64,000 nt of DNA from Escherichia phage EC148: sequence record NC_106721.1; one strand, given 5' to 3'. Positions 1,568-4,216 of this stretch are shown here, one piece after another. The notes beneath the pieces are model-generated. The model was given only the letters and a program-made list of their open reading frames with translations, did not search any database and was not told the origin of the DNA. Position 1 is the stretch's first letter. The number at the start of each line of letters is the position of its first letter. Made by a program: the position numbers and the translations under genes.

Positions 1568-1669
1568 GCTTGTTTCCTCAGTTATTAATGAAAATGGTAT
1601 CTGTGACTGAATTCGATGTCAGCAATGATAGCTGGTTGGCTACCGGTTTACTTAACTCTACACAGAATT

Positions 1670-1753
1670 TGGCGGGCCGTGTAGGATTCGAACCTACGTT
1701 GTCTTTCGACATGGATTAACAGTCCACCGCCAAACCGCTTGGCTAACGACCCT
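1670..1753 (-). tRNA. tRNA with anticodon GUU (Asn-type) and a 13-nt variable arm
   Basis: Acceptor GGGTCGT/ACGGCCC, D-stem GCCA/TGGC, anticodon stem GTGGA/TCCAT with loop CTGTTAA, variable arm GTCGAAAGACAAC, T-arm GTAGG-TTCGAAT-CCTAC, CCA encoded; 84 nt. Confidence 0.5.
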
Positions 1754-1904
1754 AAATTTATATTGCTGACTAGGATTTTCACCTAGACGGAGTTAGCACC
1801 GTAGCGTGTAGCGGCATACCTCTCCAAACCGTGCCTCATCTTTCAATTACGGAGACAGTGTTCCTACGCGTGCCTGAATTGATTTAACAACTCTTTCAGC
1901 AAAT

Positions 1905-2589: not shown

Positions 2590-2680
2590 TGGTGTTGGAT
2601 GATGGAGTCGAACCACCCGAGACCCTTCCGAGTCGGCAGATTTACAGTCTGCTTCGCTACCTCTACGATACTAATCCAAC
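2590..2680 (-). tRNA. tRNA-Tyr (anticodon GUA), about 18-nt variable arm
   Basis: Acceptor GTTGGAT/ATCCAAC perfect, anticodon stem GCAGA/TCTGC with loop CTGTAAA, extended variable arm forming a mini-hairpin, T-arm GGTGG-TTCGACT-CCATC; 91 nt. Confidence 0.6.
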
Positions 2681-3556: not shown

Positions 3557-3633
3557 TGGTAGGGGTGGTGGGATTCGAACCCACAAAACCTGAATTTTAA
3601 GTCCAGTACCTATACCAATTCGATTACACCCCC
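3557..3633 (-). tRNA. tRNA with anticodon UAA (Leu-type anticodon) but short 5-nt variable arm
   Basis: Acceptor GGGGGTG/CACCCCT (one G-U), T-arm GTGGG-TTCGAAT-CCCAC, anticodon stem CTGGA/TTCAG with loop CTTAAAA, CCA encoded; D-stem poorly defined. Confidence 0.5.
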
Positions 3634-4138: not shown

Positions 4139-4216
4139 TGGTGGCTCCCCGAGGATTCGAACCTACGTACCTTCCGGTTATGAGCCGGGTGCTCATACCA
4201 TATGAGCTTGAGAACC
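4139..4216 (-). tRNA. tRNA, anticodon CAU (Met/Ile2-type)
   Basis: Acceptor with two G-U pairs, D-stem GCTC/GAGC, anticodon stem CCGG/CCGG with loop CTCATAA, weak 3-bp T-stem around TTCGAAT, CCA encoded. Confidence 0.5.

Follow-up and report, generated by a model that had tools for sequence, protein, structure and literature searches.

A tRNA-Asn(GUU) with a conserved tRNA-Tyr-like variable arm in T5-like and other phages

In bacteria, long variable arms belong to the Leu, Ser, Tyr and Sec tRNAs, and synthetases use the arm to tell these molecules apart. The window analysed here, a stretch of 64,000 nt from Escherichia phage EC148 (NC_106721.1), contains an 83-nt tRNA-Asn(GUU) gene (1670–1752, minus strand) whose variable region is a 13-nt hairpin of the tRNA-Tyr type. 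The conserved, covarying arm on phage Asn tRNAs breaks the textbook rule, and the short-armed tRNA-Leu genes of phages break it in reverse. We conclude that the gene probably encodes a working Asn tRNA, judging from its sequence. The explanation to which we give slightly better than even credence is that of a functional phage tRNA-Asn, charged by the host asparaginyl-tRNA synthetase (AsnRS), with an arm-bearing core that would evade host tRNA nucleases.

ARAGORN called the gene as tRNA-Asn(gtt) at 1670–1752, including an encoded CCA (1670–1672) preceded by G73 (1673); it is one of 12 tRNA genes that the program found on the minus strand within the first 8 kb of the window. The Rfam tRNA model RF00005 recovered it at 59.0 bits (gathering score 29; E = 4.6e-11), with a 10-nt insertion in the variable region of the alignment. 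The unconstrained minimum-energy fold is a cloverleaf with an extra hairpin (−30.5 kcal/mol, z = −2.3). An earlier note on this DNA had proposed a GUU tRNA with a 13-nt Tyr-type arm and had named automated folding and covariance scoring as checks; ARAGORN, Rfam and the free fold agree with the proposal, placing a cloverleaf with an extra hairpin on a GUU tRNA. Its length of 84 nt needs correction, as the gene has 83 nt and position 1753 is one base too many.

The 5′ part of the RNA reads GGGUCGU-UA-GCCA-AGCGGUU-UGGC-G-GUGGA-CUGUUAA-UCCAU; it is followed by GUCGAAAGACAAC as the variable region and then by GUAGG-UUCGAAU-CCUAC-ACGGCCC-G-CCA. No defect is seen in any of the four stems, in the T loop, at G73 or in the encoded CCA, and all of these are conserved. 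The D arm (GCCA-AGCGGUU-UGGC; 1729–1743, minus strand) has a 4-bp stem and a 7-nt loop, in which position 16 is a C (U in E. coli tRNA-Asn). The anticodon arm (GUGGA-CUGUUAA-UCCAU; 1711–1727, minus strand) carries the anticodon GUU at 1718–1720. A class I tRNA would have a variable loop of 4–5 nt, such as the AUGUC of E. coli tRNA-Asn; at 1698–1710 (minus strand; RNA positions 43–55) sequence, fold and covariation define instead a 13-nt arm made of a 3-bp GUC/GAC stem, a GAAA loop and three unpaired nucleotides, AAC. A 3-bp stem with three unpaired 3′ nucleotides is the layout of E. coli and most phage tRNA-Tyr, so that the likening of this mini-hairpin to bacterial tRNA-Tyr holds. An intron or a mis-fold in place of an arm was ruled out, since the free fold and covariation both favour the hairpin.

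To 58 distinct tRNA-Asn(GUU) sequences parsed from all fetched loci correspond variable regions of 9–21 nt, of which 54 form a hairpin, 47 with at least 3 bp and 24 with a GAAA loop. Covariation was assessed on a MAFFT alignment of 18 diverse members. All four pairs of the arm helix show double-sided changes and 100% of the cells are paired, with stems as different as GUC/GAC, GUUC/GAAC, AUCC/GGAU, GUCA/UGAC, GAGC/GCUC and GCC/GGC. This pairing equals that of the acceptor stem in quality; compensatory changes occur in every tRNA helix and the anticodon loop is invariant. When all 3′ partners were moved by 1–3 columns as a control, pairing dropped to 34–46%. The feature is not a chance one, because more than 200 T5-like phage records contain this 83-nt gene unchanged (about 267 records at ≥95% identity) and its homologues carry compensatory changes in the extra stem.

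The geometry of the arm separates the classes. Three or four unpaired 3′ nucleotides follow the stem in 44 of 54 long-arm tRNA-Asn, as do three in 32 of 41 phage tRNA-Tyr; in the same phage loci the number is 0–1 for tRNA-Ser (76/98) and 1–2 for tRNA-Leu (62/69). Phage tRNA-Ser arms measure 14–25 nt with stems mostly of 4–7 bp, dimensions that the GUC-GAAA-GAC-AAC arm of the window does not reach, its layout being that of tRNA-Tyr. The arms of the long-arm Asn group are thus Tyr-like and not Ser-like, and share a design of a 3–4-bp stem, a loop that is mostly of the GNRA or UUCG kind, and 3–4 unpaired 3′ nucleotides.

The Asn identity set of E. coli comprises G34, U35, U36 and G73 and can be transplanted into another tRNA (PMC9976931). 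The window tRNA-Asn has the full set, in its CUGUUAA loop with the GUU anticodon and in G73. A73 is required for Tyr and Leu identity, and A73 and U35 are critical for Tyr (PMC9976931); the window tRNA has G73, and U36 in place of the A36 of the Tyr anticodon GUA. Across the phage loci, G73 occurs in 54/58 long-arm and 94/97 short-arm tRNA-Asn, and the pair U1-A72 in 33/58 and 68/97, respectively. Among the long-armed classes, tRNA-Tyr has A73 in all cases with a call (57/57) and U1-A72 in 2/58, tRNA-Leu has A73 in 75/75, and tRNA-Ser has G73 in 67/99 and U1-A72 in 0/99. In their discriminator and 1-72 pair, the 58 long-arm Asn tRNAs therefore resemble ordinary tRNA-Asn rather than the tRNAs for Tyr, Leu or Ser. 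This runs counter to the suggestion of mixed identity or altered synthetase recognition, both for the window tRNA, with its complete E. coli Asn set and no A73, and for the group. Charging by host AsnRS through GUU and G73 is the most likely outcome, and recognition by the seryl-tRNA synthetase (SerRS) appears unlikely given the Tyr-type layout and the short stem.

The architecture is widespread in phages. Cultured carriers of long-arm tRNA-Asn belong to Tequintavirus, Epseptimavirus, Winklervirus, Jiaodavirus, Moonvirus, Marfavirus, Phapecoctavirus and Phikzvirus; full-length homologues (83–87 nt) were found in the T4-like phages CHI14 (Winklervirus), KpV477 (Jiaodavirus) and CF1 (Moonvirus), as well as in Marfavirus, Phapecoctavirus and phiKZ-like Pseudomonas phages. 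A scan pattern that forces a long variable region (GGACTGTTAATCC, a gap of 14–26 nt, then GGTTCGAATCC) matched 68 viral contigs, mostly metagenomic and up to 476 kb in length; a short-spacer control pattern gave at least 120 matches in viral contigs. The T loop of the tRNA-Asn of Tequintavirus Bas33, UUCAACU, lies beyond the reach of the pattern. In cells, where the search covered 185,579 species of bacteria and archaea with one genome per species, the pattern matched in six places. ARAGORN called tRNA-Asn at four of the six, two of these within dense phage-like tRNA arrays and the remaining two among ordinary chromosomal genes of a Caulobacteraceae and a Devosia metagenome-assembled genome (MAG). 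These two MAG tRNAs, both from Alphaproteobacteria (L008:6272-6358 and L009:2414-2497), have GUU and G73, with neighbours encoding Sua5, cytochrome b561, a peptidase M24 and a response regulator; in the Devosia tRNA the D arm is Leu-like and the extra arm pairs weakly. A search of 5,426 E. coli genomes turned up nothing like long-arm tRNA-Asn. We conclude that the architecture is rare in cells, though not absent, because two confirmed tRNAs sit in chromosomal settings. The view of a phage-typical architecture is borne out by these many phage lineages and few cellular genomes.

The window comes from a Tequintavirus: over the first 9 kb it shares 99.9% identity with Escherichia phage T5_ev212, and its near-identity to this and other Tequintavirus genomes confirms the T5-family assignment that the earlier note had guessed. 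The gene is annotated as tRNA-Asn in T5_ev212 and hundreds of relatives. The allele of prototype T5 (NC_005859) at this locus is a class I tRNA-Asn of 78 nt whose variable loop has 5 nt, with 152 record matches (132 at ≥95% identity); its anticodon stem is mispaired and reads U36AAGUU41. A third allele of 86 nt, with the long arm AUCC-GCAA-GGAU-AAA, is found in Epseptimavirus and in Bas33. Pairwise alignment with T5 showed where the two genomes part. The flanks are nearly identical, on one side in tRNA-Cys and on the other from the shared CCGCCA 3′ end of tRNA-Asn onward; between them the window has a 152-nt spacer separating tRNA-Cys from tRNA-Asn (1753–1904, minus strand) and the long-arm gene, and T5 has a T5orf172/MUG113-domain gene (T5.069, Pfam) and the short-arm tRNA-Asn. 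In this comparison the tRNA-Asn locus behaves like a swappable cassette. The T5orf172/MUG113-domain gene of T5, a putative GIY-YIG-like nuclease, overlaps the 5′ end of the short tRNA-Asn (L199:6007-6525). Directly 3′ of the window tRNA-Asn, a segment conserved with T5 (about 1595–1667, minus strand) is annotated there as "rna3, putative tRNA-like RNA".

A further variant of the locus is found in phage Bas34 (SelmaRatti, MZ501103, about 72597–72682; L209:14598-14683, plus strand), where a deletion has made the annotated tRNA-Asn a chimera: three quarters of a long-arm tRNA-Asn, counted from its 5′ end, run within the T arm into the 3′ end of an initiator-type tRNA-Met. The two strands of its acceptor stem (GGGUCGU and ACCCGCU) do not match and ARAGORN made no call, for which reasons Bas34 was dropped as a natural test of the long-arm allele. 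The broken gene may be the reason why this phage needed a plasmid-borne T5 tRNA-Asn in the study of the PARIS defence system. With at least three T5-like alleles at the locus and the Bas34 chimera, results obtained with one allele are not transferable to relatives, and the name "T5 tRNA-Asn" covers more than one molecule.

What could the arm be for? In the explanation that we favour, the window tRNA-Asn would read AAC and AAU and would be charged with asparagine by host AsnRS. G73 would exclude the tyrosyl- and leucyl-tRNA synthetases (TyrRS and LeuRS), which both need A73, and the Tyr-type rather than Ser-type layout of the arm would keep SerRS off. The phage would use the tRNA to sustain Asn decoding during infection, and we infer that the remodelled core, with the arm beside the 3′ strand of the anticodon stem and C16 in the D loop, may be a poor substrate for defence nucleases that cut tRNA-Asn. 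AriB, the effector of PARIS, serves as an example, from which the tRNA would escape despite its host-like anticodon arm. We hold the nuclease-evasion step only tentatively, and the same applies to its wider form, in which a class-II-like arm on class I tRNAs would be a general phage strategy, the tRNAs being accepted in translation and no longer cut by immune nucleases that dock on the anticodon stem, variable region or D loop.

The E. coli substrates of AriB are tRNA-Lys(UUU), Thr(UGU) and Asn(GUU); the cut falls between positions 40 and 41 and depends on a UAAUC motif. In an AlphaFold 3 model a second AriB subunit touches U16-U17 of the D loop, and the change U16C impairs cleavage (PMC12409363). 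In the window tRNA-Asn the extra arm departs from the core 3 nt after the cut position, and the differences from E. coli nearest to the site lie in the 28-42 pair, where U-A in the window replaces C-G, and in the arm itself, which starts at position 44. A second long-arm tRNA of an AriB-cut species lies just upstream of the window sequence in T5_ev212, where tRNA-Thr(UGU) (LR597659, 30133–30219; L206:6134-6220, minus strand) has 87 nt, a 15-nt hairpin arm, a Ser-like D arm and an intact U36AAUC/A41 site; this long form is common to about 100 T5-like records. T5_ev212 thus has long-arm versions of two of the three species cut by AriB, Asn and Thr(UGU), both with the host cleavage-site sequence. 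The short Asn and Thr tRNAs of prototype T5 are changed at position 39 (U39G in the 75-nt Thr(UGU)), and its tRNA-Asn is altered at the AriB site. Bas33 (HildyBeyeler) has long-arm Asn and Thr(UGU) and no Lys(UUU). It is rescued from PARIS by T5 tRNA-Lys alone, and T7, which has no tRNAs, needs Lys and Thr (PMC12409363). In our reading, the rescue of Bas33 gives indirect support to the idea that a long-arm tRNA with an intact site would still work under active AriB.

Several observations weigh against this explanation, in whole or in part. The AriB site of the window tRNA-Asn, U36AAUC/C41, is the same as in E. coli tRNA-Asn, with no escape-type substitution at or beside the 40/41 cut, so that any escape would have to take another route. 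Any protection could come from C16 instead of the arm. T4 is also rescued by tRNA-Lys alone (PMC12409363), and the inference from Bas33 bears on Thr more than on Asn. The published finding that T5 tRNA-Asn(GUU) helps to overcome PARIS was made with the short T5 allele (PMC12409363); it says nothing direct on the long-arm allele, because prototype T5 has a different, 78-nt gene, and we set these experiments aside as direct evidence for the window tRNA. The UAAUC motif is kept in 5/11 long-arm and 22/43 short-arm phage Thr(UGU), so that no general trade-off is seen between a changed site and a changed architecture. Covariation proves only that the hairpin needs to fold, not that the arm has adaptive value. 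Charging has its own difficulties. Class II synthetases reportedly approach the tRNA from the variable-loop side (Ruff et al. 1991), so that an extra arm could hinder AsnRS; and G1-C72, G2-C71 and G73 of the window lineage (GGGUCGU/ACGGCCC and G73), together with a long arm, overlap the E. coli Ser identity set.

The strongest alternative is a neutral legacy. A class II, Tyr-like ancestor would have turned into an Asn tRNA through A36 to U and A73 to G, or through exchange of the anticodon arm, and the arm would have been kept for folding of the core with no gain in defence. By similarity, the window tRNA-Asn does look like a mosaic. Its T arm shares 15/17 positions with E. coli tRNA-Tyr and 10/17 with E. 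coli tRNA-Asn, and the extra arm has the 13-nt length and GUC/GAC stem of E. coli tRNA-Tyr (CGUCAUCGACUUC, a query sequence with a 100% match to annotated tRNA-Tyr genes). The Tyr-like arm layout is group-wide. When D arms were compared by nearest neighbour, those of long-arm Asn tRNAs were never nearest to short-arm Asn; many have a Ser/Tyr-type G9, a three-pair stem and G13-A22 and are often Ser- or Tyr-like. Their neighbours are spread over Ser, Tyr, Cys, Lys and Thr tRNAs, and no class is prominent for the plain 4-bp D arm of the window, so that the comparison gives no clear lead to the origin of the tRNA. The equal frequency of UAAUC in long- and short-arm Thr(UGU) also fits a legacy without defence gain.

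Other evidence points away from it. The anticodon arm is Asn-like: it agrees with E. coli tRNA-Asn at 15/17 positions, the wobble pair G27-U43 among them, and with E. coli tRNA-Tyr at 11/17. The 58 sequences are very diverse in their acceptor stems and D arms, and many members have the U1-A72/UCC acceptor typical of bacterial tRNA-Asn; repeated origins or one very old origin of long-arm Asn are both possible on this diversity. That the design recurs in many phage lineages on such dissimilar bodies suggests that it was gained repeatedly or retained for long under selection, and phages commonly have it where cells almost never do. Moreover, short tRNA sequences give too little signal for descent. 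We regard a neutral legacy as unlikely, while taking it seriously.

A decoy or non-decoding RNA, whose main task would be to bind and tie up a tRNA nuclease of the host or some other factor that binds tRNA, is much less probable, as is a decaying gene. The authors of the PARIS study raise competition for AriB by overexpressed viral tRNAs (PMC12409363), T5 genomes have several tRNA-like stable RNAs, and Bas34 has a broken derivative. Yet the stems, T loop, G73 and CCA are intact and conserved, all helices show compensatory changes and the anticodon loop is invariant, and the window gene occupies the position of the working tRNA-Asn of T5.

Least probable of all is mis-decoding, in which SerRS (or TyrRS) would recognise the class II body and AAC/AAU would be partly read as Ser or Tyr: Ser identity lies mainly in the long arm and ignores the anticodon, and there is a precedent in the nematode nev-tRNAs, which receive Leu on class II bodies although their anticodons are not those of Leu or Ser (PMC3333845), but the 13-nt arm with 3 bp and three unpaired 3′ nucleotides is unlike those of phage tRNA-Ser, G73 and U36 contradict Tyr identity, U1-A72 is present in over half of the group and in no phage tRNA-Ser, and recoding is unlikely because T5 (short-arm) and the window phage (long-arm) are close relatives with the same code. 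We retain a small probability for serylation because G1-C72, G2-C71 and G73 also fit the Ser set.

The second tRNA with an unusual arm in the window is tRNA-Tyr(GUA) (2590–2680, minus strand; 91 nt, A73, encoded CCA), called by ARAGORN and annotated as tRNA-Tyr in relatives. Its variable arm (2618–2635, minus strand) has 18 nt, C-GACUC-GGAA-GGGUC-UCG, with one unpaired 5′ nucleotide, three unpaired 3′ nucleotides and a stem of 5 rather than 3 bp. This arm had been described as an 18-nt, Ser-like one; the length is right, and beyond length nothing is Ser-like, as A73, GUA and the layout are all of Tyr type. Arms of phage tRNA-Tyr range from 10 to 18 nt, with 18 nt reached by 3/62, and that of E. 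coli has 13 nt. Apart from the longer arm stem it is ordinary for a class II Tyr tRNA, and its identity is not mixed. Its Rfam score, 32.6 bits, is the lowest among the tRNAs found here, and its D arm is off the usual register: the free fold separates the acceptor stem from the D stem by 5 nt, and ARAGORN forms just two pairs in the D stem. The tRNA-Tyr of T5 has 88 nt and differs from it. T5-family tRNA-Tyr genes counter retron Eco7 (PMC11555353).

Other phage tRNAs depart from the usual arm classes. In the window, tRNA-Leu(UAA) (3557–3633, minus strand; 77 nt, A73) is arm-less, with the 5-nt variable loop GUUUU, the reverse of the Asn oddity; short-armed forms make up 60 of the 135 distinct Leu tRNAs in the fetched phage loci. 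These loci were chosen by the Asn pattern, a bias that isoacceptor frequencies among them carry, including the rank of Asn(GUU) as the most frequent long-arm case. Hairpin arms with GNRA loops also occur on class I phage tRNAs: Thr(UGU) 11/54, Ile(UAU) 7/14, Ile(GAU) 5/61, Cys 7/51, Met 6/101, Trp 4/47 and Lys(UUU) 1/65 (loci including L007, L012, L015, L025-L029, L043, L056, L076 and L118). The Ile(UAU) inserts look different, being about 22 nt long with a shared CAGAUAA motif. Two tRNAs of the window were found by Rfam and missed by ARAGORN: one at 4142–4216 (minus strand, 40.3 bits), annotated as tRNA-Met in T5_ev212 and corresponding to T5 tRNA-Ile2(CAU), and one at 8424–8495 (minus strand, 35.5 bits), an unlabelled "tRNA". 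A 144-aa open reading frame at 8756–9190 (minus strand) is named "tRNA amidotransferase" in T5 relatives, a label that is poorly supported because its YqeY-like match (18 bits) is below the cut-off (27).

The annotation of the tRNA-Asn gene is already known from hundreds of records; its architecture is apparently undescribed. No description of a long variable arm on a phage tRNA-Asn was found in the searchable literature, to which the T5/BF23 tRNA papers of the 1980s do not belong; the papers examined on phage tRNAs and defence do not mention such an arm, and the word "variable" is absent from the main text of the PARIS paper (PMC12409363). Our results raise the question of how AsnRS tolerates the arm while SerRS, TyrRS and LeuRS stay off, and whether architecture, beyond cleavage-site substitution, lets phage tRNAs escape nucleases such as AriB.

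Compared with known systems, the window tRNA-Asn combines features of several. With the class I tRNA-Asn of E. coli (asnT) and T5 (tRNAN(GUU)) it shares GUU, the CUGUUAA loop, G73 and G27-U43, and with that of T5 also its genomic position; it differs from them in its 13-nt structured arm, as opposed to a 5-nt variable loop, and in the D arm, T stem and acceptor stem. Bacterial class II tRNA-Tyr is alike in the 13-nt GUC/GAC arm, the three unpaired 3′ nucleotides, G1-C72, U35 and the T arm (15/17), whereas it has A73, A36 and a Tyr D arm where the window tRNA has G73, U36 and a 4-bp D stem with a 7-nt loop. The AriB-escape tRNAs of T5 also come from a T5-like tRNA region, and the window tRNA is likewise an AriB-target isoacceptor, with C16 as in the resistant T5 tRNA-Lys; they have substitutions at 39–41, whereas the window tRNA-Asn has the host sequence there and a changed architecture. 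The closest precedents are the nematode nev-tRNAs (PMC3333845) and bacterial allo-tRNAs (PMC5389517), which also join a long arm to a non-Leu/Ser/Tyr anticodon. Those molecules keep the identity of the body (Leu, or Ser/Ala) and mis-decode, whereas in the window tRNA the discriminator and the anticodon are both those of Asn, the acceptor pairs fit Ser as well, and the acceptor and T stems have 7 and 5 bp, unlike those of allo-tRNAs.

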